DNA of 64,000 bases from Rhynchopus sp. YZ270_cl-10 (GCA_964035575.1 OZ037836.1:1922001-1986000), one strand, 5' to 3'. Counted from the first letter of the stretch, positions 14,438 through 58,800 are shown. Notes: generated by a model not told the origin, from the letters alone. Translations and numbers: made by a program.

Positions 14438-14450
14438 AAAAATTTTTTTT

Positions 14451-20343: not shown

Positions 20344-23064
20344 ATGGACCTGAACATCAAGGGCTTCGACACGAATCTGCACACAGTCGAGGTGGGTGCA
20401 GATGACACAGTGGAGGGCTTGCGGCGGAAGGTGGCGTCTGCAATGGGGTTGCCTGAAGACAGCTTTTGCATGAGTTTCGGAGACGAAGCGATGGGAGAAG
20501 GAGCGGACATGACGCAGCTGAGTGCTGGTGACACAATCATCCTCACAAAAACGCAGAAGGGGGCAATTAACGTCTGACCAACCGCCAAGTGGGGCCCCTG
20601 GACGCCGTGTTCGCATGGTACTGAGTCAGCGTGGGCGGCCGCCTCTCCAATGATGGATTCGCTCGGGACCGGAGGAGGAACAAGCCGATGTGGGAACCCT
20701 GGTTATTAATACAACATCACAGTCAATTTCGGGCAGATCACCAGCTTATGTAGGCTACGCAAACCCCTTCGGAGGGGTTTCAAGGATCTGTTACCTGTGC
20801 GGTGACTGGGAGTGTGTTGATGCCGATGAGGGGATCCCAGGTACAAGAAGGAAGCGTTGCCGGTGTCTCTACTGGTGACGGAATATTGTTGCTGTTCCTG
20901 TGTTGTCGTTTGACCGCATGGGAACGTTGTGTTGCTTTGTTGGTGCGTACACTGCATGTGAAACAACTGTGGATCAGCAGGTACGTGCTCTTGTGTATTC
21001 AGTGTGGTGTGTTGTAGTTTTGTTCAGTTCAGTTCAGTTTTCATCTTTTTGCCGTAGTAGAATTCTTGTGTTATGTGTTTAACCTCAGGCTGTGTACACC
21101 GTAGTGAAACATCTGTGGATCTGCAGGTGCGTGCTCTGTCGTTAATTCAGTGTGGCATGTTGTAGTTTTTGGTCTGTTTTTACGTTTTTGATACGTTAGT
21201 AGAAGAAGGGATCTGCGAACATTCATTCGCAGGTGGGTACAAGTTGTCGCCGTGGCATTCAGCTACGGTGCAGAAGAAGTAGTAGGGCAGACCAACGTCT
21301 GTGCTAGAAGGAAGAGGTTAAACTTTCAGGGTGTATGCACTCTGCAGGTACATGCTCTGTTGTTTTCCAATGTGTTTGTTTTTGTTCTATTTTCACGTGC
21401 TTTGGTACGTTGGAGATGAAGGAGTTGTCGCCGTGGCGTCCAGCTACGGTGCAGAAGAGGCAGTAGGGCAGACCAACTACCAAATGTAGGGTCTGTGCTA
21501 CGCGGAAAGGCTGGTACTTGAGTTTGTTCACTGTTTGTTGTAACTCCTTCCCTACCGGTACTCCCTTTCTTGTAAGGAAGAAGTTACAACTTTCTCTGTA
21601 CAAATCAGGGGAATTTTGTGTGGCCGTCTGCCATATTGTGTGGACATGTTAGCTGACGGTGCTGCTGTTTCTTTTACAACAACACTGCTCTTGCTGTTGA
21701 TTTTTCTTTTTCATTTTTACTTTTTATTGTTTCGAAAAACGGAGGTTAATGTTTCCGGTTCGGGCCTGGACTCCGACCCCTACTCTTGCTGACGCGAACG
21801 AACGGTCGTGAACCGTCCCCATTCTCTTACGGTGTGGGCACCGCGGTAACGGTGGCTAGGAAGAAGGGAATCACCCAGAACCACTAATCGCAGCCTGACA
21901 GGCACCGAACCTCGGGTGAGAATCCCCTCCTGTCAGCCCTGTTCGAAGTACCTATTTTGTTTGACCTTCTTGTCTTTTTGACTTTTTGACTTTTTCTTTT
22001 ATGCTATCGAACAGTGCACCCCCAGTAGTGTTGGCATGCATACCTGGGCTGGTCGGCTTGCCGATCTGTTCCAGGGACTGGGGTAAAGTGCCACTAAACG
22101 CAGCAGGTACCTGTGTTTTTTGGGGGTCTTTTGGTTGGGAAGGCCACAGAAAGAAGGCCCGGCCTGCCAGAGACCGTTAAAACGGACTACCACCCTCACA
22201 AAAACGCAGAAGTACGAAGCCATTGCAGAGCTTCATGCGTTGGGTGTGACCGACATCACAGCGGAGAAGTTGGAGAATGTGGAGAATCCTGAGGTGGCGT
22301 GTTTGCTTCTGCAGGCGGAGGTTGCGACTGTCATTCCGAGTGGGTTCTTGTCAGGCACTTCGTTGACGAGACTTGATCTCAGTGCTGAGTTGGCCATTGT
22401 GACTCACATTGGAGACTACTTCCTGCACAACTGCACCTCGTTAACAAGTATCAACCTCTCTGGGTTGAGCAATGTGACGCAGGTGGGTGCATATTTCCTT
22501 GCGAACTGTAGGAGCTTAACGAACCTGGATTTATCGCCACTCAGCAATGTAACGAGGATTGATAGCAGCTTTCTTGAAGATTGTAGGAGCTTAACCACCC
22601 TCGATTTAACCCCGCCCAGCAATGTGACGCAGGTTGATGTGTGCTTCCTTATTAACTGCAGCAGCTTAACCACCCTCGATTTATCTCCACTCAGCAATGT
22701 GACGGAAGTTGGTGCGTGCTTCCTTGCGAACTGCAGCAACTTAACGACCCTCGATGTATCACCACTCAGGAATGTGACGCAGGTTGGTGCGTGCTTCCTT
22801 GGGGACTGTACGAACTTGACGACCCTGGATTTGTCACCACTCAGCAATGTGACGTCGATTGACTTGGCTCCTTGGGTCAAGACTACGCAATTTGCTGCGA
22901 ACTGCACTTCGTTGACGAGCATTTACCTTTCCGGCTGCAGCAGTGTTGTGTCCAACGAAGTGAGGAACGGCAAGCTGAGCAAGCTTGTGGTTGAAGCACG
23001 TCCGAAACGAAGCAGAGACGAATCCCCCGAGCAAAGCCAGAAGCGACAGAGACACGCACAATGA
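20344..23064 (+). CDS. UBL-LRR protein, subfamily B with NLS-like tail; split by the insertion at 20560-22193
   Basis: MDLNIKGFDTNLHTVEV...IILTKTQK resumes at YEAIAELHALG...; repeats LTTLDLSPLSNVTQVGACFL; ends RPKRSRDESPEQSQKRQRHAQ*. Precise removal of the insert gives 355 aa with no stops. Splicing is unproven. Confidence 0.7.
20560..22193. mobile_element. 1634-bp non-autonomous retroposon-like insertion with 19-bp TSD
   Basis: CCTCACAAAAACGCAGAAG at 20541-20559 and 22194-22212. No TIRs and no long ORF. Right end AAAACGGACTACCAC resembles the 3' end of the LINE at 58350. Confidence 0.88.
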
Positions 23065-23266
23065 CGACGTGGTGTGTTGGTGGCAGGGCAGCACCTCCCC
23101 GAGGTGGAGGGTCTCTGGCAGTATGTCTGCTTGCATCCTCTGACAAGTTGTGTCGTGTTTACATCGCTCTCACCAATAATTTGGGCACACTCAGATATCC
23201 TCCCCTACAACCTCTGCAAGGCGGTTGTCTCAATAAAAATAACACAATGTGTGGAACGTCTTGCTC

Positions 23267-23379
23267 ACGAAGCTTTCAAAACAAAACAAAAGACCTCTCC
23301 CCTTGTAACTGTTTATTGTCTCTTGCGTACTCTTACCCCCAATTGAAAACACCTGCACAAAACAGAGAGACACAAAACC
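23267..23379 (+). promoter_or_regulatory. Conserved 5' flank of subfamily A genes: pyrimidine tract plus AG, candidate trans-splice acceptor
   Basis: GAAGCTTTCAAAACAAAACAAAAGACCTCTCCCC...CACAAAACAGAGAGACACAAAACC-ATG recurs at about 27998-28110, 33659-33771 and 63244-63347, and in interrupted form at 60180-61199. Function is inferred. Confidence 0.55.
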
Positions 23380-24939
23380 ATGGAAATATGTGTGAAGAGC
23401 TTTGACGGAGAGAAGTACACAGTCGAGGTGGGTGTGGATGATACAACTGCGGACATACGGCGGAAGGTGGCGTCTGCAGCAGAGTTGTGCGAAGACGGCT
23501 TTGACATGAGCTTCGGTGGGAAGCTGCTGGCCGAAGGAGACGACACGACGCAGCTGAGTGTTGGGGACACAGTTGTGCTGACGAAGACGAAGTCGCAGAA
23601 GGACGACGCCATTGCAGCTCTTCGTGACTTGGGTGAGACAGCGCTGACGTCAGAGAGGTTCAAAGGTACCCGACGGCGGACCGCCCCCCATAGCACATTT
23701 TTGCGGTGCACGGGCGTACGGGATTAGTATCTTTTTTTCGAGAGAACCCAAGAGCGGCCAGGTCCTGGACAAGTACGTTGTGCTTTTAGACCTACAAACT
23801 GTCTGGGGTGGTGGGACCTCGGGGCGAAGGGTGCTTCCCGGGACCCCAATATCCTACCACAAGGAGCTCGAGTCGTGCATGGAATGCAGGGTACTCTGAG
23901 CCGATTACTTCCACAAAACTCCCAGATCCCAAGACCTCCACGGGGGGCAGGCCTCCACGGCAACCCGCGACCGCCGACACCTTAGCTCCGTACTGCCTCT
24001 GTCTGTAACCTGCCGGTCCCCCACCTACCTACGCTTTTTGTGGTGTCTTTTTACGACGGTGGACCAAGGGGCTTTGCAGTGCAGTCAACGCCGACGGAGC
24101 GAGACTCGATTGTGACCGGGTGAAAAGGGAACCTTAGCCAGCGCTAACCAGCGGCAGTTTTGACTCAGGGAGGAGTTTCTCACCGCAGACTGGCGACACA
24201 CCCCCACTTTTTCGGGGTGGCTGCATTCCTCTTCGGAACGGGGTGTTCCATCCTATTTTTAAAAACGTTTAGGTCAGAGAGGTTCAAAGGTCTGGAAGAT
24301 CCCAAGCTGGTTCATTTGTTTCTGCAGGCGGAGGTTGTGACTGAGATCCCCAATAGATTCTTGGCAAATAGTCCGTATGAAGAACGTGATCTCACGTTCT
24401 CAGAACTTGATCTCAGTGGTGTGCCAGGTGTGACTGCAGTAGGCTGCGCATTCCTCCAATACTGCACCTCATTGCACACTCTTGATTTGTCTGGGTGGTG
24501 CAATGTGACGCAAATAAGGAGAGCCTTTCTCTCCAACTGCACCGCGTTGACGACACTTGATTTATCTGGGTGGACCAATGTGACGCACATTGGCGACCAC
24601 GTTCTCTTCAACTGCAGCGCATTGCGAACCCTTGACTTATCTGGGTGGAACAAGGTGACGTGGATTGGTCACTACTTTCTCTCCAACTGCACCTCGTTGA
24701 CGGCACTTGACATGTCTGGGTGGAGCAATATTCCGCACATCAGTCTTTTCTTCCTCTCCAACTGCACCTCGTTGACAACACTTGACATGTCTGGGTGGAC
24801 GAGGGTGATGACATTTGAGACAGGCTTCCTGGAAGGATGCAAAATACGCACAAGCAGCATCAACATCACCGGATCAAGCAGTGTTGTGTCTAAATGTGTG
24901 CGCAACAGGCGTACCAAGCGCCAATGTGTGTGCATGTGA
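23380..24939 (+). CDS. UBL-LRR-CaaX protein, subfamily A; one 624-bp insertion-derived intron (311 aa)
   Basis: MEICVKSFDG...LTSERFKG resumes at LEDPKLVHLFL; ends RRTKRQCVCM*. GT-AG removal of 23666-24289 or 23649-24272 restores the frame exactly. Confidence 0.82.
23668..24272. mobile_element. 605-bp non-coding insertion with 19-bp TSD
   Basis: GTCAGAGAGGTTCAAAGGT at 23649-23667 and 24273-24291. Confidence 0.88.
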
Positions 24940-27351: not shown

Positions 27352-28110
27352 ATGTTTTTTTTGTGAGGAGAAAACCAAAACAAAATGAAGCTTGTAAAAT
27401 GAGAGTGGAGGTTTTTCATAATGTTTTATTCTCCCCATTACCACCACTTCGCAGAAAAAAACTCTTTTTTTTTTCGTTCGCGAGTTTGTTTTGCGTCTTC
27501 CGCAGTTTACAAACTTTTATTTCTCGGTATCACTTGTGATACAGTTTCCATGGATAGACATGAAAAGGAGCACAGGTGGTTTTGTGCTGGTCTTTCACAC
27601 GTGGGGCGTGTCTCCCAAACAACAATAAAGTAAATGACTAAAAATGTTGAAAGAAAAAGGAAGAACAAAACAATGTGGTTTACAAAGGGGACTATAAAAT
27701 GAGACACGTGTGCATATCTAGTAGTAACCACGACTCGTTTTTTTCCCTCCGGAGGGGGTCTGTGTGTGTGTTGAAGTTAGATCACAAAGCAGGTCTTTTC
27801 AGTATTAATGAAAAGATGCAAAGCTTAGATCTGGCGAGATTCTTACACTGTTCCACACTGCATCAATGCTGCGAATATTGTGCTTGTAACCCCAAAATAA
27901 TCAACATTTTTTGAGCATGCCATCAGGTTTCCTTTTTACAGTACAGGGTACACTTTTGGCAGCTGGAGCACATCCTCGGGTGTGCAAACTATTACAACGA
28001 AGCTTTCAAAAACAAAACAAAAGACCTCTCCCCTTGCAACTGTTTGTTGTCTCTTGCGTACTCTCACCCCCAATTGAAAACACGTGCACAAAACAGAGAA
28101 ACACAAAACC

Positions 28111-29031: not shown

Positions 29032-29934
29032 GGCATGTGCATATGTCAAGAGCTTGGCGCTCATTGCGATGTTCACTGTTGATCATACAGCAAGACTGCC
29101 ACGAGTTTTTTGCTGAGCTGGTGGACGCCAACAAGTACGAGTAGACGTTCCACAAATTGTGTTATATTTTACACTGCAAAAGAATCTCCACAAAAACCCA
29201 TGTCTTATTCATTACGTACCTCCCCGCCCAACCCCCCTTTTTTTTCTGTAATTCATCACTACTGAACTCGTTGAACACCACGTGGTCTTTCACTGTCTTC
29301 TTCGACACACACACCCGACCACTCCCAAAAACACCTGCCATCCTGTGGGTGATCTCATGTACGGCGTGTGTCGTCAAGATGGCAGCCATCCACAAAGTCA
29401 TTAACCTGTCAGAGTGTCCCACGTCAAGAGGGCCTTCCCCACCTCCCGCATGAGGCCAATATGGAGGTGTTGTCCTACGTATCCTGTACCTGTTTTGTTG
29501 TTTTTTCTTGCCCCACCCAAAACACCTGAAGCAGAGAAATCACTGAGATGGTTAGGTTGTAGATGCATTCCAATGTGAGAGATCTATCTCGACCTTGCCT
29601 TGTGAACAGAGGCGGTAGGACTCACGACCTTGATGCCTTGCTGAAGCATTTCTGTGAAGATGGGTGTCGGGAGGGTCACGTTGCAGACACCAAGGCTTTC
29701 TATGACGTCTGCTCGGGTGGTGATCGTTTTGTTCCTTCACACCAACTGACTGCAGGTCACCCCCAAGACACCCCCACGCACCATAACCTGAATAGGAAGC
29801 TGATTACACATCCCCACCCTTTCTCTTCTGCGTCTATATCCAAAAGAGGTCTTGTTATGTTGAAGGGTTTTTCTGCGAGATGTTTGCGCGACAGAAGGAC
29901 GATTCGGTTCGGTCGACGCTGGAACACCACACAT

Positions 29935-32587
29935 GCGCCGAGTGAAGTGCCTGCAGCACATCATGGACACACCGAGACTGTGCGCAATGTTGCGGGTTTG
30001 CCAGAGGTGGACGTGAAGCACGCAGATGAGAACGGGATGACTGCGTTGCACTGGGAAGCAAAGAGAGGTTCTCCTGATGTGGTGCAGGCGCTCGTTGATG
30101 CAGGGGCAGACATCGAGGCAAGGAACAGCTTGGGTTGTTCGCCTCTGCTTGTCGCTTGCGAGAACGGGAATATTGCAAAGGTGAAGATGTTGGTCAGAGC
30201 TGGTGCAGATGCACGTGCCACAGATGCCGGCGGACACACGTGTCTTAATTCTTGCAGCATATTTGGGACACACCGAGACTGTGCGCTATCTTGTGCGCTT
30301 GCCGGAGGTGGACGTGAATCACGAAAGCAGCAAGAACAGCACTGCGTTGCACGTAGCTGTGCAGGAGAAACATTCAGACGTGGTGCAGGTGCTCATTGAT
30401 GCAGGGGCAGACATTGAGACAAAGAATGATAAAGGACGCTCTCCTTTGCTCGAGGCTGGCTGTTTAGGAGCACTCACAATTGTGAAGAAGTTGGTCGAAG
30501 CTGGTGCGGATGCACGTGCCACAGATGCCGAAAGAAACACGTGTCTTTCCCTTGCAGCGTATTTTGGGCACACGGAGACTGTGCGCTATCTTGTGGGCTT
30601 GAAGGATGTGGATGTGAATAGCGCAGATAACCACTTCACTGCGTTGCACAGAGCGGTGGCCAAAGGACATGTCGATATCGTTCAGGTCCTCATTGAGGCA
30701 GGGGCAGACGTCGACGCAAAGAACGACATGCTATTTTCGCCTCTGCACTTGGCTAGCTGGGAGGGGAATATGGCAATTGTGAAGATGTTGGTCGAAGCAG
30801 GTGCGGATCTAAGTGTCGCAGACAATAAAGGTAACACTTGTCTTACCCTTGCAGAATATGAAGGACACACCGAGACTGTGCGCTATCTTGCCAACTTGCC
30901 GAAAGTGGATGTGAATAGCGCAGATCATGAAGGCTTCACTGCGTTGCACAGGGCGGTGGGCGGACGACGTGCTGATCTGGTGCAGGTGCTCATTGATGCA
31001 GGGGCAGATATCGAGACAAGCAATAATGGAGGACGCACGCCTTTGCTCGAGGCTAGCTGTTTAGGAGAACTCATAATTGTGACGAAGTTGGTCGAAGCAG
31101 GTGCAGATGCACGTGCCACAGATGCCGAAAGAAACACGTGTCTTATTCTTGCAGCATATTTTGGACACACCGAGACTGTGCGCTATCTTGTGGGCTTGTC
31201 GGAGGTGGACGTGAATCACGAAAGCAGCAAAAACCGCACTGCGTTGCACGTAGCTGTGCAGAAGAAACATTCAGACGTGGTGCAGGTGCTCATTGATGCA
31301 GGGGCAGACATTGAGACAAAGAATGATAAAGGACTCTCTCCTTTGCTCGAGGCTGGCTGTTTAGGAGCACTCACAATTGTGAAGAAGTTGGTCGAAGCTG
31401 GTGCAGATGCACGTGCCACAGATGCCGAAAGAAACATGTGTCTTTCCCTTGCAGCGTATTTTGGGCACACGGAGACTGTGCACTATCTTGTGGGCTTGAA
31501 GGATGTGGATGTGAATATCGCAGAGAAACACGTCACTGCGTTGCACAGAGCGGTGGCCAAAGGACATGTCGATATCGTTCAGGTCCTCATTGAGGCAGGG
31601 GCAGACGTCGACGCAAAGAACGACATGCTATTTTCGCCTCTGCACTTGGCTAGCTGGGGGGGAAATATGGCAATTGCGAAAGTGTTGGTCGAAGCAGGTG
31701 CGGATGTAAGTGCCTCAGACGAGCACGGTGACACGTGTCTTACCCTTGCAGCACAGCATGGACACATCGAGACTGTGCGCTATCTTGCCAACTTGCCGAA
31801 AGTGGATGTGAATAGCGCAGATCATGAAGGCTTCACTGCGTTGCACAGGGCGGTGGGCGGACGACATGCTGATCTGGTGCAGGTGCTCATTGATGCAGGG
31901 GCAGACATCGAAACAAAGAATGATGAAGGACGCACGCTTTTGCTCGAGGCAAGCTGTTTAGGAGAACTCATAATTGTGACGAAGTTGGTCGAAGCAGGTG
32001 CAGATGCACGTGCCACAGATGCCGGCGGACACACGTGTCTTATTCTTGCAGCATATTTTGGACACACCGAGACTGTGCGCTATCTTGTGCGCTTGCCGGA
32101 GGTGGACGTGAATCACGAAAGCAGCAAGAACAGCACTGCGTTGCACTTAGCTGTGCAGGAGAAACATTCAGACGTGGTGCAGGTGCTCATTGATGCAGGG
32201 GCAGACATCGAGACAAAGAATGATGAAGGACGCTCTCCTTTGCTCGAGGCTGGCTGTTTAGGAGCACTCACAATTGTGACGAAGTTGGTCGAAGCTGGTG
32301 CGGATGCACGTGCCACAGATGCCGAAAGAAACACGTGTCTTTCCCTTGCAGCGTATTTTGGGCACACGGAGACTGTGCGCTATCTTGTGGGCTTGAAGGA
32401 TGTGGATGTGAATAGCGTAGACGCTAAAGACTTCACTGCGTTGCACTTAGCTGTGCAGGAGAAACATTCAGACGTGGTGCAGGTGCTCATTGATGCAGGG
32501 GCAGACATTGAGACAAAGTGTGATGAAGGACGCTCGCCTTTGCTAAGCATCGTCCTCAAGTCCCTCAGCGACGGGCCAGTGTCATAA
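29935..32587 (+). CDS. Ankyrin-repeat protein, about 26 repeats; +1 frameshift near 30247 (pseudogene or assembly error); start uncertain
   Basis: Canonical TALH/SPLL/TCL ankyrin repeats in ORFs 29563-30399 and 30203-32587. TGTCTTAATTCTT at 30241 has one extra A relative to the sister repeat TGTCTTATTCTT near 32036. Confidence 0.85.
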
Positions 32588-38707: not shown

Positions 38708-39641
38708 ATGGATCTGAATGTGGAGTTTTGCGACGTGATTGAGGTGGCTCTGGCTGACACAGTGGAGGACATGCGTCGGAAGGTGGCGTCTGCAGTGGGG
38801 CTGCCTGAAGACAGCTTTGACATGAGTTTCGGAGGCGAAGCGATGGGAAAAAGATACGACACGATGCAGCTGAGTGCTGGGGACACAATTTTGGTGACGA
38901 CGACAAAAAGGTGCGAAGCCATAGCAGCACTTCATGCGTTGGGTGTGACCGACCTGACGCCTGGGAGGTTGGAGGAGGTGGAGGATCCTGAGGTGGCGTG
39001 TTTGCTTCTGCAGGCGGAGGTTGCGACTGTTATTCCCAACTGCTTCTTGGCGGAGACATCGATAACGCGACTTGATCTGAGTGCTGTGTCGACGGTCACG
39101 CGGATTGAGGACAGCTTCCTCTACCTGTGCAGGAGTTTGACAGCTGTCGACTTGTGTTGTTTCAACAGTCTCACGCACGTTGGGGACTGGTTCCTCGAGG
39201 GGTGCAGCAGTTTAACAGCACTCAACTTGTCTTCACTCAACAGCCTCACGCGCATTGGGAACAGCTTCGTCACCGGATGCAAGAGTTTAACGAGCATTGA
39301 TGTGACTGCACTCAAGAATGTTACGGTGATAGGGTACAGCTTCCTCCTCAACTGCACCAGTTTAACATCTCTGGACCTGTCGTCACTCACCCAGCTTACG
39401 CACCTCGGGGCTTACTTCCTCCAGGGATGCGAAAGTTTAACATCTCTCGACTTGTCTTCACTCAACAACGTTACGCACGTGGCCCACCCCTTCTGCATGG
39501 GTACAAACTTACAAGCCATCCGCCTCTCTGGGTGCAGTGCTGTTGTGTCACTTGATGAAGTTTGTTGTGGATGTCCGTCCGAAACGGAAGCGAGACGAAT
39601 CACCTGACGAAGACTGCAAGCGACCGAGACTGTCGCAGTGA
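38708..39641 (+). CDS. UBL-LRR protein, subfamily B; ORF ends at 39607, ancestral NLS tail displaced into the +1 frame
   Basis: 299-aa ORF. After VVS near 39550 the +1 frame reads LMKFVVDVRPKRKRDESPDEDCKRPRLSQ* (stop 39639-39641), matching the paralog tails. Confidence 0.8.
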
Positions 39642-40278
39642 CAGACCACGATCTCTCTTATTCGTGCCGAACCTGAGTATGTTTGTGCAGTCCTGAGGTC
39701 TGTGCACGGGTTTTTCGATGGCACCGTTGTGACCGGACGTGGCTAGCCGCATTTCGGAGTAATGGCGCCATACCCGTGCAGAACGTGACTCAGGATGACA
39801 ACTCGTCGAGAGACCTTCCACAGCTGCGTATGGCAGCATTGAGGGAGACGTCGTGAGCAGTGAGTTTGCTTAACTTACCTTTTAATTTGTTTCAGCTCTT
39901 GTAACGAGAGTTGATGTTTGTTTATGTTGTCATTTAGTGTTTATGAGTGCATCATCTGTTAGCAAATAACCCCACCCCACCCAATATATTTTTGTTCAGA
40001 AGACGGAAGGAAGCGTGTGTACGTGCCTATGTATCACTGGCCATGCGGCACTGTGCAGACAAAGTTCGTCCAGTTTCCTGATAATCGGTGTACGTGTTTT
40101 CGTCGCCGCTCTAGCTGTTGTTAAACCCTGTTCCACAAATTAATTTGTACGAGTACACTGCCGGGTTTTGTATTTACTGGGTACTGGGCATTGCATTCCG
40201 AATCCTCACCACAGCCCACACACCCCCCTCCCCCACACACACCTCCCTTTGTGAGGATCCCCCACAACACTCCTAGCA

Positions 40279-43200
40279 ATGGTTGAGGGGAAGGCGCCGT
40301 TGTGCGAGACCGACTCTGAAGATGGCGACGTGCTGCTTGAGGTGCCTCCCGCGAGTGTGGAGCAGATGGGCGAGGAAACGCCTCCGACACCGCAGGAGCT
40401 GCAGCAGGAGCAGGCGCTGTTCGAGACCGACGATGCCGTCTTCGCAGGCTCTGGGAGCGTCTTCACCGTGCAACCGAAAGGGGTGGACCGGAGAAAAATT
40501 GCGATCGGGGTCTGCGTACTGCTTCTTGTCGTTCTCATAGTGTTGCTGATTGTTTTTGTCCCTGACTGGGATGACGACAACAACGATACCAACGCACCTG
40601 ACACAGACACACTCAAACAAACAAGCTCACCAGACGCCACACCCACACCAGGAGGCACGCCTACCACCCCCCCAACCCAGACTGCTTCCACCTCCACACC
40701 TCTGCCTGACATCTGCGGGGCCCCCGACGTTCAGGTCGGCCGTTACAGCAAGAAAACCGCGCGTACTGTTGTGCTCCCCAACGGCATTCCTGTGGTGATC
40801 TTCAGTGATCCCGATGCTGCTCTGGCAAGCGCCGCTTTTGATGTAGGAGTGGGCTCGTTCGATGATCCTGAGGAGTTCTACGGGCTGGCACACTTTGTAG
40901 AGCACATGGTCTTCAAGGGGTCTGCACGCTACCCAGGAGAGTCGCAGTTTGGGGAAATAGTACAGCGTTTTTCTGGAAGCTCGAATGCCTTTACCGACAG
41001 CACGCAAACCAGCTTTTTTTTTGAGTGCGCGGCAGCCGGGCTCGCCGAGGTGCTTGGTGTGTTTGGTGGGTTTATAGACCAGCCGTTATTCCCTGAGTCT
41101 GGGGTGCTGCGTGAGGTTGCGGCAGTGGACAGTGAATATAAAGCTTATTTACCACGTAGCGTGTGGCGTACGTTTGCATTGCAGAAGGAGACGGCGGAGA
41201 ACAAACCGATGAAGGGGTTTTCTGTGGGGAGTGTTGGGACGTTGAATAAGACTGGTGTGCGTGACGCGCTGGTTGCCCTGCATGCTCGCTCTTATACGAC
41301 AGACAATATTGCGATCGCGGTGACCGCCCCGCTCCCGCTCGACGCCCTGCAGGATGCGGTGCTTGCCGCCTTTGGTGCCATACCACGCAGCACTGCGACC
41401 CGACCACAGTGGGTTGCCGACCCTGCCTCAATGCCCCTCCCGTACCCAACCCCAGGACGTATCGTCACCGCACGCCCCTACAGCCCCGAAGAACGGCGCC
41501 TCAAGATCGTATGGCAGGTCCCCTTCGATACCCAAGGTGCTCCCCCTTCTCCAGGGCCGGGTGCCGTGCTGGCCTTTTTGATTGGTCAAGAAGGAGCTGG
41601 GGGGCTGCCGGCAGTGCTCCGTGACGCTGGGCTGGCGACCAATGTAGTGTCGGAATTCTACGATCGGCAGAATTGGGTGTCGCTGCCGGCGGTGACAATT
41701 GAGCTGACGGAGGCAGGCCTGCAGAGGATAGACGATATAGTGGCGACAGTGTACGCATACCTACGGACAGTGCGGGAGACTGGCGTGGTGGGTTTGGAGC
41801 AGTGGTACGCAAGGGTGCAGCGTGCAGCGGTTGTCGGGTGGGATCTGCTGCCTGAGTCGCAAGGGATGAATGCGGCGAGTGGATATGCGTTCCGGCTGCG
41901 GAAGTTGCAGGAGAGCACCCAATGCTTGAACCATGTGACCAACCCGCCGTCGTTGTGGGCGTTCAACGAGACATTGGCGCTGGCGGAGTTGGACGAAATG
42001 AAGGAAGAGAATATGTGGCTGTATCTGTTCTCGGAGGGTGCGTACACAGCGCGCAAGGCGGCGCAGCCAGACGCAGCGCAGACGGAGCCGTGGTTCCAGG
42101 TCGCCTACGTGTCGGAGGTGGTGTCGGATGCGCGGCGTGCAAGCTGGGCGCCTGCCCTCTCGCCGCTGGCGGCAGTGCTGCGTCCCCCGCCTGCAGACGC
42201 GCTCTTCTCTGTGTCCGTGCCCGACGCAGCGAGCGACACAGACGCCCCCGCGGCAGATGATGTGCTCGCACTGCCGGCCCCGACAGCGCTCCCCACAACA
42301 TCCGGGGGGCACATCGACGCCTACTACCGCGGGTCTGTCTTCACACGCCCTGTGGGTGTGCTGCGTGTACGCCTGCTGCGTGCGGTGCCTGCTGTCGTGG
42401 TGCAGAACATACGCAACGTGGACGACGAGGTTGCCGCTGCGCTTGCGTCACGCGGCGTGAACAACGCACTGCGCGACGTGCGTGCGCAGGCGGCGGAGGT
42501 TGCGATGTCCTTCGCCGTCTCCTTCGACCTCGACTTTCTTGAGGTTGCCCTCAGCGGCGTCGTTGCACAGTTCCCTGCACTTCTGTCACACATCCTCAAT
42601 GCACTCTCCACGCCCTTCAACGGCAGCACCACAAACTTCGCCACCGCCAAACAAGACTTTTCTAACGGCCTCCTCTCTTGGCGCACCGAATCCTGGCTCG
42701 TACAACAGGCACTCTCCATCCTCGACAGCGAGGTCACACCAGACAATACCAATGCCGCTTTAACCTCCGCCCTCACCACTGCCTCGCAAGCCACCGCTGA
42801 AGCTGTTGCCAACGAATACAAAGGCTCCTGCCAGCTGCTCCTCGCCTCAAACACCAAGCAGACACCACGCGATGCGGCATACTCCGCTATTGCAGCGCAG
42901 CTCCGTTCTGCTGGCTTCTGTTCAACGCCCTCTGCGGCACACAACCCGCTCACCCGGGTCCTCAGGACAAAGAACTGGAATGTCATCCGGAGAGTAGCTC
43001 CGAACAGCCAAGAAACCGCAGGGGCTGCCACCGATGCGTTTCAGTTAGGTGTAAACACTCCCGAGGTCGAAGCTCGCAGCAGGGTCCTGCAGACGTTGAT
43101 GGGTGAGGCATTCTTCACGCAGTTGCGGAGTGTGGAGGCGTTGGGGTATGTAGCGCAGGTGGTGCGTCGGGTGGTCAGCGGGGTGGTGACGATGTATACA

Positions 43201-46200
43201 ATTGTGCAAGGTAGTGTGCGTGATGCGGGGTATATGGGGGCAAGGATTCAAAACTTTTTGTTTGTATTTGAGAAGACGTTGGAAGCGATGGACGGTGCTG
43301 CGTTTGCAACGGTTGTGCAGAGTATGGTGGCGGAGCAGATGGCGCCTCCGGCGGACAAAGGTAAAGAGTCGGAGGTGGTGTGGTCGGAGCTCACCTCAGG
43401 CACCAGGATGTGGGACAGAAGGGCGCAGGTGTTGGCAGCATTGCGTGGGGTGACGCAGGCGACGCTCCTGGAATGGTACCGGGAAAACTTCTTGCGCACT
43501 GAGTCGCGCAGAATCACGTCTGTGTTGGTATGGCCTTTTTGTTCATCTTGGATTATGATCTTATAAACTTTTCTTTTATTTTGTTCTGTCCTGAGTCGAA
43601 ACGGGAGTAGCGGAGTATCATATGTAAACCACGAAATGGATGTAGGACTGCATTGGTTGGGGGGGTCCACCTCTTGCCATACAGGTTTTTTCTAGCGTCT
43701 TCCCCCTCGCCAGCGTTCATCACCGAATTGGTGAACCCCTTCCCCAACACAAAGCAAAATCCTCTCTTAACTCTACTTCACTTTTTTTTCCACACAACAC
43801 CCAACACAGCTGTACAGTGCGTCCACCGCTGTGCCTACCCTCGATGTCACCGCCATGCCCGATGCTCCTGCTGACGTACGCCCGACCCGCTACGTCTCGG
43901 AAGGTTTTATCCCTGCGATGTACAACGAGACCTGGGCAGACACACCCACCTTCGTTGTACCGGGCACATGCCGGACGATTGAGGCGACTGCGCAGACGGT
44001 TGTGCAGAGTGCCTACAGCACGACGCAGACACGCACCTTCGTGCTCCCCAACGGCATCCCCGCCACCCTCGTCTCCGACAGCACAGCACCTCTCGCCTCA
44101 GCAGCCGTCCACGTCGCTACCGGGTCGTTTTCGGACCCAGCAGAGTTTCAGGGTCTTGCGCACTTCCTAGAGCATATGCTCTTCATGGGGTCACAGAGGT
44201 ATCCCGGTGAGACATACTACCATGACATGGTGCGGAACAATGCGGGGAGTGCCAACGCATGGACCGGGCCTGACGGAACGAATTACCATTTTGCAGTGCT
44301 GCCAGACGCATTTGCCGCGGTGTTGGATGTGCTGGGCGGTGTCTTCGAGGGGCCGCTGCTAGCAGAGTCAGCAATATCGCGTGAGGTGCAAGCCGTGCAG
44401 AGTGAATACGATTTGAATTTAGGCAAGCCGTACAGACGGTTGTCCCAGCTTCAGAGAAGTGTGTCCGCGCCAAACACCCCATGGAACGGCTTCAGCGTCG
44501 GAACGTTGGAAACATTGAACAAGACCGGTGTGCGTGACGCGCTGCTCGCCCTGTATGCTCGCTCCTACACAACAGACAATATTGCGATCGCAGTGACCGC
44601 CCCGCTCCCGCTCGACGCCCTGCAGGATGCGGTGCTTGCCGCCTTTGGTGCCATACCACGCAGCACTGCGACCCGACCACAGTGGGTTGCCGACCCAGCC
44701 TCAATGCCTCAACCGTACTCTGGGGTTTACAATGGCAGAGTGTACACTGGGCTTCCTGTCTCGGAGCAGGCGAGTCTGTCGGTGTACTGGCAGGTACCGT
44801 ACAGTACGGAGCGTACGACGGTGACGGATGTGACAGCCGTGGTGCGCTTTCTGTTAGAGCAGGGTGCGGAGGGTGGGTTGGAGGCTGAGCTGCGTCGTGC
44901 AGGGTGGGCGATGGAGGTGGAGTGTGATGTGGAGAGGTATTCGTGGTTCTCGCTGGTGGGGGTGGTGGTGTCGTTGACGACGGAGGGCGAGGGGCAGGCA
45001 GATGCCGTGGTAGCAACCATCTACGCGTACCTGGATGCGGTGGCGGTGGGGCTGGCGGCTACGCCGACGTTGCTTGAGGATGTGTTTGCGAGGGTGCGTG
45101 ATGCGGCCTTCGCGGTGTGGACGCTTGCGCCGCAGACGCGTGGGCAGCTGTCGGACACAGCGTATCTAGCAAAGACGACGAGCGCCATCTGGCGTGGCGA
45201 CCGATGCTTCAACCAGATGTACTACCCCCCGCAGCTGTGGGTGTTCGATGCTGCTGCGGAGCGGGCGGTGTTGGCGCTGCTGACAGTGGAGAACAGTGTC
45301 GTGTATCTGTTCTCGGAGGGTGCGTACACAGCGCGCAAGGCGGCGCAGCCAGACGCAGCGCAGACGGAGCCGTGGTTCCAGGTCGCCTACGTGTCGGAGG
45401 TGGTGTCGGATGCACGGCGTGCAAGCTGGGCGCCTGCCCTCTCGCCGCTGGCGGCAGTGCTGCGTCCCCCGCCTGCAGACGCGCTCTTCTCTGTGTCCGT
45501 GCCCGACGCAGCGAGCGACACAGACGCCCCCGCAGCAGATGATGTGCTCGCACTGCCGGCCCCGACAGCGCTCCCCGCAGCCACATCCGGGGGGTACATC
45601 GACGCTTACTACCGCGGGTCTGTCTTCACACGCCCTGTGGGTGTGCTGCGTGTACGCCTGCTGCGTGCGGTGCCTGCTGTCGTGGTGCAGAATATACGCA
45701 ACGTGGACGACGAGGTTGCCGCTGCGCTTGCGTCACGCGGCGTGAACAACGCACTGCGCGACGTGCGTGCGCAGGCGGCGGAGGTTGCGATGTCCTTCGC
45801 CGTCTCCTTCGACCTCGACTTTCTTGAGGTTGCCCTCAGCGGCGTCGTTGCACAGTTCCCTGCACTTCTGTCACACATCCTCAATGCACTCTCCACGCCC
45901 TTCAACGGCACCACGGCAAACTTCGACGCTGCCAAACGCGACGTGCAGAGCGACCTGGACGCATGGCTGGACTCACCACTTTACCAACAAATCAGCGACA
46001 TGCAGGTCCACTTGGGCCTCGGCCCTGGCAACGTTGTCCCTGCCCGCATCACCGCCCTCGACCGCTCCGTCGAACGCTTCGCCGCTGTCGTCCCCGAAGC
46101 TTACCAATCAGGCTCCTGCCAGCTGCTGCTCTCCTCCAACACCAAGCAGACACCGAGGGATGCTGTCTACGCTGACATCGTCGCACAGCTCCGTACTGCA

Positions 46201-48442
46201 GGCTACTGCAGTGCCGCAGTGACGGACACTCTCGTCCCGAACCTTGCGTCACGCCTATTACAGATAGACCAATGGATCGTCGTCCAGGAGCCTAGACCGA
46301 AGGACAACGGTGACGGCAACGAGGCTGCGTCCGAAGTCTACCAGCTCGGTCTCGACTCCACGGACAACGAAGCCCTGGCACGGCTGTGCGGCAGCGCGCT
46401 GCACGGTGCGGTGTTCACACAGCTGCGTACCAAGGAGGCCTTGGGGTACGTGGTGTGGGCTGGGGGCAGGCTGCGCAGTGGCGTCTGGCAGGTCGAGCTT
46501 CTGGTGCAGGGTGCCGCGCGGGGTGCGGCGTATATGGGGGCAAGGATGCAGAACTTCATTGCGACGTACGCTACGCAGCTGGACAGCATGGGGGACGATG
46601 CGTTCCGTGCGATGGCGGATGCGGTGGCGGCTGGGCTCAAGGCCTACCCCTCCACGACAGTAGCCGAGGCAGCGCCTGTGTGGGCACAGCTCGTGACAGG
46701 TGCACCGGACTGGGGTCGTCGCACTGCGGTGATTGCGTACCTCGAGTCCCTAAGCAGGGAGGCCTTCGTTGCCTGGTACCGTGAGACCTTCCTCAGTGCA
46801 AGGAGGCGGCTGCTCTCGACGCAGGTATGCTGGGATTCGTCAAAAAATGGGTGGGTTTTTTGTGGTTTTTTGCGTTGGGCAGGAGGGAGGGGGGGTGGCA
46901 TCCTGAGTGTGTGGCGTAGTATGAAAAGGCTTTCGGCCAACACTGAGTACAGACATATCACCCTGAGCTCCCCACCCCCAGGGCTATGACGGCAGGAAAA
47001 CGGGAAACGTTTCCTTTGCAGAAGCGGGTAATCCCCCCCGAATTGGGACCACTTGTCCTGCATGTCTTCCCGTGCTGCTGAAGCCGCCATGCCCTTCTCT
47101 AGTGGTCTGGAGGACCAGTTCTCCTACTGCAAGTCAATCTTCCCCGAAGAGCGTGCGCCCCACGACTTTCTGGAGCCCTGCTTTTGCCTTTGCACAACCG
47201 CGGGCAGCTGCGCGTGAAAACGGGATGCAGTATATACCCGCAGTGGTGGATGGGCTTTTTCGGCGTGCACCCACCTCTCCGCGCCATCCTCACCATCTCA
47301 TCCCTTCGCTCAACGGATGAGCTCTAGCTGAGGTCAGCTACGTACGCCGTCCACACTTCAATAAGATGTTCGCTACATTGATCGGAGGGGACTCGCCTGG
47401 TTCTCCGTCTGTGTCCCGCAGCCGAAGGAAGCGCCACGTGGGTGTCGTCAACCTGCAGATCTTATCTACGTTTTCCCAAACCTCGTCTCCGATGACTTGG
47501 TTTCTACGAATGTCGGCAACCCCCTTCGCTATCGGTTTTTTGCGCCCGTCTCCACTCTGTGTAGTCCAAGGAGACAGCGCTTCTCAAAGCCGCTTTGAGC
47601 TTCTTCAAACGGCGGAGACATATAAAAGTTGTCCCCATGCGTGTGTCATTGGGACACACCAGGGCGAGAGCAATCTTTTCGAGGATTGTTGCCAACCGTC
47701 CACCTTCTTTCCTCCATAGGGAGATATGGAGGTCCTTCTTCTCGTCTTTTGGGCTTGCAGATGCTGACACCCTGCCCCCCGGCGTCTGCAGGCTTTCACC
47801 CGGCTCGCACTCGAAGCAGTGAAAACTGCTTCGCAAAAAAACAGCATTTCACTGTTTTCGTCTTTGCCGTCTTCCGCCTGAACCTCCACGCTGTGCCATA
47901 CGCTCACGCCCTCACCCAACTAGCAACAGCAACAGAAACAAACGGGCTGAACCCAACGCCAGCAACTCTTATCCACACCCCCCCAGTGTTCTAAAAATAC
48001 GTATTGATTGAACAGTTCACAAATGTTCGAATAACGAGATCGAAATGTTAGTTATCAGATTCGTATCAATACGTACGCGTACTAATACATCAAGTGGTCA
48101 TCAATAGTGGGGGTGGATCACGTATTTTAGAACACCTGATCCACCCCTGCCCATTGTGCATTCCATTTTAAGGTGTATTCCACACTCAACAACAACCCAA
48201 CAAATAGTCTCCACCCAAGCATGGTGTGGCCTATACAGGGGTAGTGGTATACCTTAGAAGGACCTTTTTTACACCTTTTTTTTTTGGAAAAATTACACCA
48301 TTTAACACATCAGATATTCACGAACTCCAGCATCTACGAGCCCATGTCTGCTGCCGACATGCCTGACGCTGATCCTTCTCTCGTGCCGAAGTACCTTTCC
48401 CTGGAGAAAATGAAGATAACGTACCCCAACACATGGGCATAA
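40279..48442 (+). CDS. Type II membrane tandem M16A (insulinase/pitrilysin-like) metallopeptidase; exons 40279-43527, 43810-46824, 48314-48442 (2130 aa)
   Basis: TM segment IAIGVCVLLLVVLIVLLIVFV followed by a T/P-rich stalk. Two HxxEH motifs (GLAHFVEHMVF, GLAHFLEHMLF) and two FTQLR..EALGY motifs. Phase-0 GT-AG introns join the ORFs. The last exon (MPDADPSLVPKYLS...YPNTWA*) is homologous to the unit-1 tail (MPDAPADVRPTRYVS...YNETWA). Confidence 0.88.
43528..43809 (+). other. 282-bp GT-AG intron
   Basis: TTG|GTATGG ... CAACACAG|CTGTAC; in frame with ORF 43831. Confidence 0.82.
46825..48313 (+). other. 1489-bp GT-AG intron
   Basis: CAG|GTATGC ... CATCAG|ATATTC; same protein position as intron 1. 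Confidence 0.8.
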
Positions 48443-51648: not shown

Positions 51649-51649
51649 G

Positions 51650-54700: not shown

Positions 54701-54749
54701 GCAGAGGCATGTCTTCAATCACAACCAAAGCAGATGCGTAACTGATAAC

Positions 54750-54900
54750 AATGCAACGTCACAGTGGTTCTCGAGAAGAAGTAGGATGGAATCGCAGTCG
54801 CAGCTCCTGCCTGCAGGAGCAAACAAGCCACCTTCGGATAATTGCATACATCAGTCACCATATTGAAGCCAAACCTCTTCGGATCAGTCACCTGCTCCAA
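54750..54900 (-). pseudogene. Decayed subfamily B UBL-LRR fragment on the minus strand
   Basis: PKVACLLLQAGAATAIPSYFFSRTTVTL matches the family motif PEVACLLLQAEVATVIPxxFLxxTSLTRL. Confidence 0.75.
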
Positions 54901-55248
54901 CCGTTAGCCAGCAGCAAAACTAATATGAGCCGAAACTGATGAAAGCGGGGATGTGTAGGACGATCGTCTTTCATAACAGCGCCTCCTACCCCCCTCTGGC
55001 ACCTGGCCAGCTGTGGCTAAATAAATAGGAAGCCACGACGCACAGAAGTCAGCCGCGTCCTGTTTGAGGCTCAGCTCCAGTGGTGCTACCTTCAAACGTA
55101 CCACAAACAAAGAGGACCCATCGCTTCGTCAGCGGGCTGACTCCGCCCAAAACTAGCTCTTCTTTTTCATCGTCATCTTCATCTTCTTCATTTGGAAAAG
55201 TTGATGACGTGTTGACACCTCGCAATGAAGCACATTTTTTTTTTTTTT

Positions 55249-55293
<45 letters not shown>

Positions 55294-55852
55294 CTAATTA
55301 TTTATTTGAAACGCAGAGTTTGTTTTGGCCCCGTCTGTGAGTGTTGGTTGAATTGGAGTCGGGGAGCACAGGTTGGGGAGGAAAGAGAGAGAGGAAACAA
55401 ATACAAGACTATCGAATTATACACACGAATTCATCCTTCGATTCCAAAAAGGTCCGATCCTTACAGTTTGTATTATTTCCTAACAACCACTCCGTTGCAC
55501 TGCGTTACGCTGCGTTACACTGCGTTGTTGTCTGCAAGAACAGAAAAATAGGAATCAAAAAAAAATCAAAAAAAAAAAAAAATAAAAATAGAACTTTGTA
55601 AGCCACCGCTTTCCGTCCTCTCTCCAAAAAGAAAGAACGAAAGAAAACGCCCCCGCCCCCCTCACTGGGCCCCCCCAGTTGACTGCAGTACTGAGGGCAC
55701 AGCCCGGTCCATTTCCCCCACCTCCGAACATTCAATTTTTAAACGTTTGTGAAACGCTGCCCCCCCGGATAGCACCATATTTCTTGTCTTGTCCTCCACA
55801 CCCCACCACCACACGCAGAGCTCAGAACACACAAAAAAACCACAACAAACAA

Positions 55853-58800
55853 ATGGACGTGCACTTCGAGGATTTCAGAGCGAATCAGCACACAGTTGAG
55901 GTGGGTGCAGATGACACAGTGGAGGGCTTGCGGCGTCTGCAATGGGGTTGCCTGAAGACGGCTTTTGCATGAGTTTTGGAGACGAAGCGATGGGAGAAGG
56001 ATACGACATGACGCAGCTGAGTGCTGGTGACACAATCATCCTCACAAAAACGCAGAATGCAGGCACGACAGGCTGGGACGCCCACGCTCCCGACGAAACT
56101 GGAAGGCACCATCGACGCATGCGGACCGCTAGCAGGTAAGGTGGGATGCCTCCCGCTGACTCAAGGTGAGAAAGCAGGCATCATGCAGGCTGCAGTGATG
56201 TCGAAATCTGTGTACGGTATCACGGTGCAGGACCCACCTGGGAAATACGTGAACAGTCTTGCAACTGCAGTGGAGAAAGGGGTCCACGGCGTGAACAAGA
56301 TGAATCGGCGAAGCGTACCGGTCATGCTGAATGTCTTCGAGAAAGGCCATCTGCTCGACCCCTCAGTGGCATTCGACTACAGAAGGATCATGACGTGGGC
56401 GGCGATGATACGCAAATCGGATGAGATCTGTTCGCTGGTCGAAAAGTGCAGGTTACGTGCGAAAGCGAAGCAGGCGAAGACTGGAGGACCCATCGGGTTG
56501 ATTGCGCGAGCCCTCAGCCGCCTTGCGTGGTCGTGGATAGACACGACAAAGGTGAAAACGCACGATGGGAGCATCGTTGATGTGAAGACGGTAAGCTTGG
56601 GTAGACTGGGCCACGTTGTGCGAGAACGGATGTTCTTCATTCGACTCTCCCGTACGAAGACGACTGCGAAGGTCAATGGCAAAGGCAGAGCTAACCTGAA
56701 GGGTATTGAAGCGGGGGTGGATAAGGAGAAAACCCTTGCTCTCACCCGAAGCAAAACTTTGACGGATTACGAGGCGGGGACGCTGCGACACATTGTAGCT
56801 GACGGTGCGATAACGGGGGTGCGACTTGCGAGAGCGCGCATACGGGACTCGGCCATCTGCGTTCACTGCGAAGCGGGGGTGGACGAAAATCACAAACACT
56901 TGTGGTGGGAATGTGAAGCATGGAGTAGCATTCGTGCGGAGTACCCCTTGCTGTTGGACATTGACAGAACGACCTGGCCAAACTGTCTCGCTATCTGCGG
57001 CATGTGCACACCGGACACACCTTTGGAATGCGCCCGTGTTGCAGACCTGCAGAAGATGATGGTGCGCATCCTCATCGCACGCTCCAAGTGGAGCAGACCG
57101 GAAGCGGCGAACCCGCGACTGCAAGAAGACCGATACCCGTGGACGTGGGCACCGGAGTTGGACACGACGACGCAACACGCGAACAGTTTGGTGGACTACA
57201 CCCCCCTGAAAAGGAGGTGGCCGTATGGACGTGCTCTGCTGCTGGCGTTTGCCTCCTGGCTGGGTGGTTTACAATGGAGCGACGAAGCTGGACGTGAAGT
57301 CTCCCACATGGAGCTGCTCATCGACTTCGAGGTTGCCACAGGGATGGACATCCGACCTGGGGACAAGACCGGCAGAATAGCGCCGAAGCTGAAGCAGCCG
57401 AGGGCTGGGACTGGGGAAGAAGACAACAATGGGGGGGAAGACGACGGGAGTGGGGAAGACGACGATGATGACGACGTGGTGCCAGTAGCGCTGGCCCACA
57501 GAGAAATGGCGAAGACGACCACCTTTGGGCATATGTTGGCTTCACTCAGAACCTTTTCGGAGAGCTCTCTCCATCCGGGGAAGGTGAAGGTAACGCATGT
57601 TCTCGCTTCGTTTGGGGCGAACGCCATCACAGGCATCGACCGCCGTCCTATCTTTGCCGGCGGAGAAGAAACGTTGAAGGCATTGCGTGCGCTATACGAT
57701 GCTGGTGTGGCGTACCGTCTGCAACGCAGCTCCGAAGGCATGTCTGAGGTGGAGCTCCGTGGTGGCGATAGAGCGAGAGGTACATGGATGGGGGAGTATT
57801 CTGCTGAGACGGCGTACCCCTCCACAGAAGTTAGAGGCAGGAGGGCACTACCATTCATCCAGCGGGCTGAACAGGAGACATCTGCGCATGCTCGCTACCG
57901 GCACCATGAGCACGTGCGTCCAGGGGATGCACCCGTGAAGGCACCTGAAGGAGCGGTTCCGATCTTCCAGTTTGCGATATGTGTGCTGCACCGGAAGACG
58001 AAGTGTGATGCCTGCTCGAAGAACGCCCAGGCAGACCTGATGCATTGCTGCTTTGCGCACCACTCCGACGACGACGGGTTACCGATCCGACACGAAGCAT
58101 GCACTAAGCATAGACTCTCGAGGTGCGGGAACTGTGTGCAAGAGAAGAGTACGCTGGAGCACTGCTGCCGCCGCCACCACGACACCTCGAAGGGGCGACA
58201 GACGACGCTGGGAGGCTTCTTCAAGAAGAAGCAGACGAAGCAGAAGGATGGGCACAGCAGGGGCGGTGATGGACTTATGTAACATCACCTCCACGATGTA
58301 TTGTATCACCTATCTCGGATAGGGGTGCATGCATCGAAAACGGGCCCCCACCTCACAAAAACGCAGAAGTACGAAGCCATTGCAGAGCTTCGTGCGTTGG
58401 GTGTGACCGACCTGACTGGAGAATCCTGAGGTGGCGTGTTTGCTTCTGCAGGCGGAGGTTGCGACTGTCATTCCTGATGGGTTCTTGAGGGAGTCATCGT
58501 TGACGCGCCTTGATCTCAGTGCTGTGTCCTTTGTGACACAGATTGGAGACAACTTCCTCGAGGAGTGCACCTCGTTGACAAGTGTCGACCTCTCTGGGTT
58601 GAGCAATGTGACCCTGATTGGCAGTCACTTTCTTTGGGGCTGCAACTCTTTACCCACCCTGGATCTGACACCACTCCACAACGTTACGAGGATTGGGATT
58701 TGCTTTCTTGACGACAACTCTTTAACCACCCTGGATCTGACACCACTCAGCAACGTTACGAGGATTGAGGGCTGCTTTCTTCACGGCTGCAACTTTTTAT

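Follow-up and report, generated by a model that had tools for sequence, protein, structure and literature searches.

The window analysed here, a stretch of 64,000 nucleotides from Rhynchopus sp. YZ270_cl-10 (GCA_964035575.1 OZ037836.1:1922001-1986000), carries an array of genes for proteins with a ubiquitin-like (UBL) domain and BspA-type leucine-rich repeats (LRRs), and two of these UBL-LRR genes are interrupted at the same codons by different inserts, namely insert 1, which is non-coding, and insert 2, a 5′-truncated long interspersed element (LINE; Table 1). The 18-mer CCTCACAAAAACGCAGAA has exactly four exact copies in the window, at 20541, 22194, 56040 and 58351, and these form two pairs, each of which brackets one insert in a UBL-LRR gene at the LTKTQK codons, hereafter site 1. 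An earlier note on this DNA, made from the sequence alone, had claimed that both inserts occupy an identical site with target duplication in two subfamily B genes, and the two pairs bear this out. Its insert lengths of 1634 bp and 2293 bp are right on the boundaries it used; of its lengths for the target-site duplications (TSDs), 19 and 18 bp, the second stands, and the first is better taken as 18 bp, the insert then beginning with G20559, because helix P1 of a predicted ribozyme begins at that position.

The coding sequence of the family makes up ~15% of the window. Its domains match the Pfam family ubiquitin (E 2e-6, copy at 28078) and BspA-type LRR_5, and none matches the retrotransposon hot spot (RHS) family. 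Subfamily A genes (ends at 8268, 24939, 29031 and 62507) close with CVC[M/T]-stop, which we take to be a CaaX-like prenylation signal, and in most subfamily B proteins the C-terminal tail is basic and KR-rich (ends at 23064 and 59027), presumably resembling a nuclear localization signal. As no clear membrane segment is present in the nine intact family proteins checked (highest 19-residue hydropathy 1.72), the term receptor-like used in the earlier note is not retained. The two occupied paralogs are identical at 188/205 positions (92%) upstream of the site and at 551/674 (82%) downstream. Among targets the site-1 codons vary (TQK, TKK, TMK, SKK, TLK, MRN, TTK). The third subfamily B copy starts at 38708 and has its diverged site at 38894. 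The argument that divergence explains its vacancy is weak, since P0034, in the same supported clade (97/88), carries a LINE insertion after IFLTTTK.

Table 1. Positions of the interrupted genes, inserts and associated features, counted from the first nucleotide of the window
Feature	Position	Strand	Basis
Gene 1 (subfamily B), 5′ half; UBL domain; ends in left TSD	20344..20558	+	Pfam ubiquitin match of the family UBL
Left TSD of insert 1, 18 bp (19 if G20559 is taken as target)	20541..20558	+	
Insert 1, 1635-bp non-coding element	20559..22193	+	
Predicted double-pseudoknot fold like that of hepatitis delta virus (HDV)	20559..20629	+	hand-built descriptor
3′-terminal 15-mer of insert 1	22179..22193	+	
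Right TSD (22194-22211) and gene 1 3′ half; BspA-type LRR, basic tail	22194..23064	+	
Unoccupied subfamily-B-like copy; diverged homologous site at 38894	38708..39607	+	
Gene 3 (subfamily B), 5′ half, UBL frameshifted; left TSD 56040-56057	55853..56057	+	
Insert 2, 5′-truncated family-1 LINE	56058..58350	+	aa 924-1664 of 1664-aa open reading frame
3′-terminal 15-mer of LINE; last base common to TSD	58337..58351	+	
Right TSD (58351-58368) and decayed LRR half of gene 3	58351..59027	+	
Insert A, 614 bp, non-coding (6952-7565); 18-bp TSD at 6934/7566	6934..7583	+	
Insert B, ~605-606 bp, non-coding (23666/23668-24272); 19-bp repeat at 23649/24273	23649..24291	+	

Recurrent integration at site 1

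Integration at site 1 is recurrent, bears hallmarks of target-primed reverse transcription, and is accompanied by an intact open reading frame (ORF) for an apurinic/apyrimidinic-type endonuclease (APE) and a reverse transcriptase (RT). Junctions coincide within ~1 base in many diverged paralogs, the duplications measure 17-19 bp, and poly(A) is absent. Outside the window, junctions were read from predicted proteins in databases. On the LINE side the sample comprised 29 LINE-family proteins (15/34 members of the main cluster, 7/7 and 4/4 of two others, and three singletons) and involved no selection for the target. Six of the 29 have a foreign N-terminus. In four of them (P0002, P0004, P0010 and P0034) this is a UBL domain that passes into the LINE at the site-1 codons; none of the six junctions lies at site 2 or 3, two further positions in the family described below. 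The earlier suggestion of sequence-specific targeting is supported in that 4/6 informative junctions, in a small and biased sample, are on target, which speaks against most copies lying at unrelated sites; strict specificity is not supported, because 2/6 lie elsewhere and the target codons vary.

LINE copies joined to a UBL domain at the K-x-x-K codons show seven distinct 5′ truncation points in two LINE families. Those of family 1 are at aa 924 (the window copy), aa 843 (P0010) and aa 1216 (P0034), those of family 2 at aa 611 (P0002) and aa 1094 (P0004), and two out-of-frame junctions at site 1 are at insert base 1564 (P0196) and insert base 2155 (P0201). A contig joint in run X3 (56056->58293) fits an eighth truncation that left a stub of the 3′ untranslated region (UTR). 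Altogether, site-1 insertions are found on at least seven contigs, distinguished by their lengths.

The UBL-side sample (22 clusters of 42-135 aa, plus eleven further cluster members) gives a similar picture, in that 13 of the 22 clusters carry a foreign tail directly after K-x-x-K. Nine of these tails begin GAINV, an exact read-through into insert 1, and two begin GGN, which is the head of insert 1 at another offset; one belongs to the LINE copy of the window, and one (P0180) matches neither LINE ORF in a shifted frame (best 16/25). The GAINV and GGN tails are explained by the five Gs at the head of insert 1. Among the remaining nine clusters, one stops at site 1, four have foreign tails at the second site, one is uncertain and three are apparently plain frameshifts. 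The eleven further members include one GAINV tail, the two out-of-frame LINE junctions and eight genes empty at site 1. In all, the 5′ end of insert 1 follows site 1 in 12 other paralog proteins (10 GAINV, 2 GGN) on several contigs, 10 of which have one and the same 5′ junction.

In a UBL tree of 36 sequences, which is weakly resolved with 72 columns, occupied copies are mixed with empty ones. On it, the GAINV label requires 10 changes for 11 rows (shuffled mean 9.7), at least 6 of which are forced by starred branches, and near-identical empty sisters stand beside occupied genes, as in the pairs P0173/P0195 and P0176/P0197.

Elements at site 1 and at other sites of the family

The ORF of insert 2 is 98.4% identical to aa 924-1664 of a full-length LINE protein of 1664 aa; it encodes a CCHC-type zinc knuckle and a Cys/His-rich C-terminus, and its stop at 58282 is followed by a 68-nt 3′ UTR without poly(A). 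Because a loose end in run X3 runs on into the upstream LINE coding sequence, insert 2 is a clean 5′ truncation. The two sister LINE families, with full-length ORFs of 1664 aa and 1666 aa that are 77% identical, have a common order of a 2A-like motif, APE, RT, CCHC-type knuckle and Cys/His-rich tail. The predicted 2A motif, DVEE[H/N]PGP, lies at aa 81-88 and the APE domain begins at ~aa 92. Exo_endo_phos matches at E 6e-10 and 5e-11 in the two families, and RVT_1 at E 2e-19 and 1e-19; the APE catalytic motifs N, QE, GDFN, RID and H are present, GDFN, HRPV and YADD occur in both ORFs, and the closest solved structures to the RT are LINE-1 ORF2p and R2. The LINE ORFs have no family match to a restriction-like endonuclease (RLE), and neither RNase_H nor RVT_3 matches P0016, P0023 or P0024 at E<=1. 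These full-length ORFs decide between the two endonuclease classes that the earlier note had considered, APE and RLE, and on its domain content the insert 2 family is assigned to the APE-type non-LTR retrotransposons. Residues 1-56 of P0016, P0023 and P0024, which precede the 2A-like motif, are identical across families otherwise 77% alike, and may reflect a conserved RNA or DNA signature rather than a conserved protein.

Named relatives among the ten LINE-protein clusters come only from the diplonemids Flectonema and Rhynchopus, which by itself points to a probable diplonemid host. In a tree of further relatives the LINE groups with P0025/P0026 (99), and its nearest neighbour by path is a Rhynchopus cluster. 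Metagenome scans at JGI with the LINE protein and the UBL domain as queries found no relatives, and in the ESM Atlas aa 1270-1664 had no match and aa 88-940 matched generic APE-RT clusters only. A model of the C-terminal 483 aa (predicted local distance difference test score, pLDDT, 77; predicted template-modelling score, pTM, 0.64) had no Foldseek match at E<=0.001; its first 90 residues match the zinc-knuckle regions of R2 and L1 weakly (Z 5.0, 4.8 and 4.1), and no DNA-binding module emerged from these comparisons, which bear mainly on those 90 residues.

Insert 1 has no ATG-initiated ORF longer than 83 aa, contains internal degenerate repeats and ends without poly(A). Its 3′ tip agrees with that of the LINE at 12 of 15 bases, with a 1-base ambiguity in the 3′ boundary of the inserts, and is the top match to the LINE terminal 15-mer, itself excepted, among 127,970 positions on both strands. 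Internally, no significant similarity between the two inserts was detected (best blastn E 0.038, best tblastx E 0.23), and tblastn with the N-terminal 90 aa of the LINE found no coding match in insert 1. The description in the earlier note, of inserts unrelated inside, alike at their 3′ ends and devoid of poly(A), is therefore accurate. The shared 15-mer is likely to be the cis signal for the RT. Among the loose contig ends listed for the LINE region, none falls at the 3′ junction, and no RNA data set was listed as containing that region, which has no bearing on expression. In run X6, a depth-12 contig passes from a site-1 flank into 711 unaligned bases; depth is 4 along the body of the full-length LINE and 12 over the final 580 bases of its coding sequence. 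These depths fit abundant copies of insert 1 together with many short 5′-truncated LINEs, or a deletion derivative like RIME, the non-autonomous partner of the trypanosome element ingi.

A scan of the window for TSD-like repeats revealed two further clean inserts, both in subfamily-A genes. Insert B lies at ERxxx codons, the second recurrent site (site 2); its head occurs at the homologous position also in P0185 and, slightly truncated, in P0177, and two more proteins have one other tail in common there. Insert A lies in an LRR repeat, the third site (site 3), which is a single case. The two inserts show a weak relationship (E 0.009, with 76% identity over 50 nt), and the 3′ end of both is TTTA[A/G], unlike the LINE tip, so that they probably depend on another, unseen LINE.

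Three of the inserts may begin with an HDV-like ribozyme. The fold predicted for insert 1 consists of P1 of 6 bp with G1.U, P2, P3, P1.1, a UUCG-capped P4 and CNRA. Matches to a hand-built descriptor of this fold at 20559, 6952 (the exact 5′ junction of insert A) and 23666 lie within <=2 bases of three 5′ junctions, and controls yielded 0/1000 junction shuffles each and no match in 40 shuffled 64-kb strands at P1>=6. Neither version of the descriptor matches all three by itself, the first failing at insert 1 and the second at insert A; their union does. At the head of the truncated LINE the descriptor is negative, as expected of a 5′ truncation. If real, a 5′ ribozyme would account for the uniform 5′ junction and for a first TSD of 18 bp like the second.

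Proposed mechanism and alternative explanations

Site 1 is a hot spot at which retrotransposons have repeatedly entered a protein-coding family; the specificity is strong, though not absolute. Probably, UBL-LRR genes have received many separate insertions at these codons from two sister families of APE-type LINEs and from a non-coding element, likely through a preference of the endonuclease and likely with copying of the non-coding element in trans. The autonomous and non-autonomous pair proposed in the earlier note is supported as far as it consists of an APE-type LINE, likely the autonomous member, and of a partner without coding capacity whose 3′ tip matches; that the LINE mobilizes insert 1 is what we infer. 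In this model, full-length elements would be co-transcribed in the direction of the host gene and freed by a 5′ HDV-like ribozyme, which is predicted for the non-coding elements and unseen for the LINE. The N-terminal peptide would be split from the APE-RT by the 2A-like motif, and the LINE protein would bind the common 3′ tip (AAAACGG.C..CCAC). The bottom strand would then be nicked at or next to C^CTCA, where reverse transcription would be primed, and a second nick would follow 17-18 bases downstream. The preference would be relative, as in ingi and L1Tc, and redundancy of the family would let disrupted copies persist.

Several observations weigh against this model. The foreign N-termini of P0003 and P0206, two of the six informative on the LINE side, are not at site 1, 23 of the 29 proteins are uninformative as to the junction, and the main cluster is represented by the 15 of its 34 members. 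Reading junctions from predicted proteins favours genic insertions and makes only 5′ junctions visible; 3′ junctions were seen for the two copies of the window only. With the last 2.3 kb of the LINE, insert 1 shares only ~15 bases, and gene conversion, too, would be expected to scatter occupied copies over the UBL tree. As for the ribozyme, the descriptor was written after the sequences had been seen and was adjusted twice, its background at P1>=4 is 0.85 matches per shuffled strand, and it also matches a palindromic repeat (14617), 46248 and minus 54474. L3 is non-canonical in the three predicted folds (9, 18 and 24 nt), Rfam found no ribozyme in insert 1 and returned a single chance snoRNA match (E 4.8), and minimum-free-energy folding did not recover the pseudoknot and gave values no better than those of shuffles (z +0.7 to +1.6). 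The foreign N-terminus of P0206 resembles the intergenic segment 60918-60974, at 68% over 19 aa only; this segment belongs to a palindrome-rich repeat and precedes a family gene by ~230 bp.

That both inserts descend from one insertion preceding the gene duplication, with one copy later replaced or rearranged, would explain their common position and 3′ tip, but is hardly credible. The inserts lack internal homology, and the different truncation points in two LINE families, together with the interleaved tree and the empty near-identical sisters of occupied genes, exclude a single ancestral insertion, so that the independent insertions proposed in the earlier note are confirmed. Unlikely, too, is a site-preferring LINE of which insert 1 is not the passenger, the latter having been copied by an unseen LINE with the same target or having spread partially by gene conversion or half-swapping among paralogs. 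Such an origin would agree with the shortness of the common tip, with the predominance of one 5′ junction among the insert-1-type proteins and with the unexplained foreign tail of P0180 at site 1, which fits neither LINE ORF, and RHS pseudogenes are reported to arise via recombination upstream of the insertion site (PMC7563717). On the other hand, four codon sets (TQK, TKK, TMK and SKK) are found in the left TSD directly against the GAINV tail, three of which also occur in empty paralogs and TMK only as SMK, the two GGN copies have a different offset, and an identical 5′ junction is to be expected from a 5′ ribozyme. Gene conversion may add to the spread of insert 1, yet it cannot produce different truncation points.

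It is also quite improbable that nothing beyond a short motif is recognized, such that C[CG]TCA-like sites are cut widely and insertions pile up because the family is abundant, transcribed and dispensable. C^[CG]TCA can indeed be read at each of the three nick sites, and this motif is present 316 times on the two strands of the window; sites 1 and 2 agree at only 17/40 positions, a level reached by ~1.5% of window positions; off-site copies of the LINE exist; and an insert with duplicated flanks near minus 54474 may lie outside the family. However, survivorship of this kind would account for the gene family and not for the codon, because 7/7 protein-level LINE junctions in UBL-LRR coding sequence are at site 1 within a gene of 0.9-1.3 kb, and B-type inserts recur at site 2.

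Relation to known systems and other elements of the window

The model of repeated site-preferring insertion has a direct precedent in trypanosomes, where RHS genes are a hot spot for ingi and RIME in their 5′ coding region, with predicted disruption of more than half of the family (PMC7563717), contrary to the view taken in the earlier note that site-specific elements mostly avoid protein-coding genes. RHS proteins are nuclear according to the same source. L1Tc combines a 2A sequence and an HDV-like ribozyme with RNase H and poly(A), and its site specificity is relative (PMC5814959). NARTc and L1Tc have a 77-nt head in common and, at the 3′ end, 13 nt with 85% conservation (PMC1874656), and ribozyme activity in the ingi/L1Tc clade at large is the subject of PMC4035085. 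By analogy, the system described here would work like ingi/RIME in RHS genes. Both ingi/RIME and L1Tc/NARTc resemble it in their euglenozoan host (inferred here), in a single-ORF APE-RT LINE with a 2A-like motif just before the APE, and in a non-coding partner that shares the tips only, with a 5′ HDV-like ribozyme shown there and predicted here. The RHS hot spot is likewise one site in the 5′ part of the coding region of a multigene family, with split pseudogenes and relative specificity, and autonomous and non-autonomous elements occur at one site in many family members there as they do here.

There are also clear differences. RNase H and poly(A) are features of the ingi clade, whereas the two site-1 LINE families have no RNase H match and the inserts of the window no poly(A); the RT motifs, compared by eye, are QGCPLS and RPITI..YRL here versus QGSVLGP and RPISL in L1Tc; and the CCHC-type knuckle with a long Cys/His-rich tail stands in place of the two C2H2 fingers of L1Tc/ingi. 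Because of the lack of RNase H and poly(A) and the RT motifs, which are unlike those of L1Tc and by eye nearer to Proto1, the LINE is provisionally not classed as Ingi. The target genes are of the UBL-LRR and not of the RHS kind, site 1 lacks the published motif GAxxAxGaxxxxxtxTATG^A, and further element families use other sites of the same gene family, unlike in RHS. The TSDs of 17-19 bp are longer than those of ingi, which measure ~12 bp. What is new here is the different LINE lineage, the different target family and the sharing of that family by several elements.

The sharing of one multicopy unit by several element families, each at its own position, is familiar from R1 and R2, both of which occupy 28S rDNA, and, as the title of one study reportedly states, from multiple CRE elements in Crithidia mini-exon arrays; the unit here differs in being a fast-diverging protein-coding family. 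Proto1 is not known to be site-specific. The Proto1/L1 group (PMC3708506) resembles the present LINE in its RT motifs by eye and in an L1-type CCHC knuckle (weak fold match, Z 4.1-5.0), and one sister family from the assembly carries an RNase H of the RVT_3 type; the accessible part of that source does not report a 2A-like motif for the Proto1 clade, although 2A-like motifs occur in other LINE clades too (PMC3708506). Target-specific LINEs of the Tx1/R1 clades (Keno, R1, TRAS/SART; PMC4640811) are similar in their APE, precise multicopy site and frequent 5′ truncation, but the targets of specific elements listed in the accessible part of that paper (rRNA, spliced-leader, tRNA and snRNA genes, transposons, microsatellites and telomeres) include no protein-coding family. 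A literature search on diplonemid non-LTR retrotransposons, with most subscription journals and Repbase Reports outside its scope, found no description of the system; RHS is not mentioned in the accessible part of PMC12278014, and rigorous identification of diplonemid mobile elements is said to await a better assembly (PMC10161547).

The related family with RNase H, the P0029 cluster (17 members), which is found on contigs equal in length to those of the LINE, encodes a LINE protein of 1991 aa in the order OTU-APE-RT-RNase H, with an N-terminal OTU-like protease and the RVT_3-type RNase H after the zinc knuckle, and is apparently active. P0223, a truncated copy of this family, is joined to a UBL-LRR 5′ UTR ~30 nt before the ATG (16/16 aa match, 20264-20311), and a second copy, P0213, has a short N-terminus without match; as P0223 is one case, it does not show targeting by the family. 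With these elements, the gene family might be seen, tentatively and with somewhat more doubt than belief, as a niche comparable to rDNA and divided up between several retroelement families, each with its own site, which evolved independently of RHS in a non-Ingi lineage without poly(A). Such a niche would hold, at the UBL end, two 2A-APE-RT LINEs together with a passenger headed by a ribozyme, further ribozyme-headed families resembling short interspersed elements at the UBL-LRR linker and within the LRR, and possibly the OTU-APE-RT-RNase H LINE in the 5′ UTR. Use of one gene family at several sites by several element families is the most novel aspect and is only partly shown.

If the model is true, RHS is not a one-off, since a second euglenozoan lineage with another LINE and another gene family would have the same arrangement, and it becomes testable whether redundant protein-coding families are safe havens or controlling traps for retroelements. 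Sister elements that prefer different sites in one gene would offer a natural series for target choice by APE-type LINEs, and a tail-less 3′ tip of ~15 nt common to the LINE and its cargo RNA would be a compact cis signal.

Other features lie near or within the array. On the minus strand, between 54484 and 51133, a 14-bp sequence occurs at minus 54484, 51548 and 51133 around a ~2.9-kb stretch and a 416-bp tandem repeat; the HDV-like descriptor match at minus 54474 starts GTACC, as insert B does, and a decayed inverted UBL-LRR fragment near 54.8 kb adjoins the region, which is possibly another retroelement outside the coding sequence of the family. At 17611-18912, a 1.3-kb element lies between 442-bp inverted arms of 98.9% identity, and the flanks inspected contain no obvious TSD. 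At 11986-16200 a large inverted duplication (1022 bp at 98.4% and 417 bp at 98.1%) surrounds palindromic repeat arrays of GGGAACC/GGTTCCC. Inside the UBL-LRR array, 40255-46989 and 29563-32587 hold two tandem ORFs for M16/insulinase-like peptidases (HxxEH, by eye) and a long ankyrin-repeat ORF.

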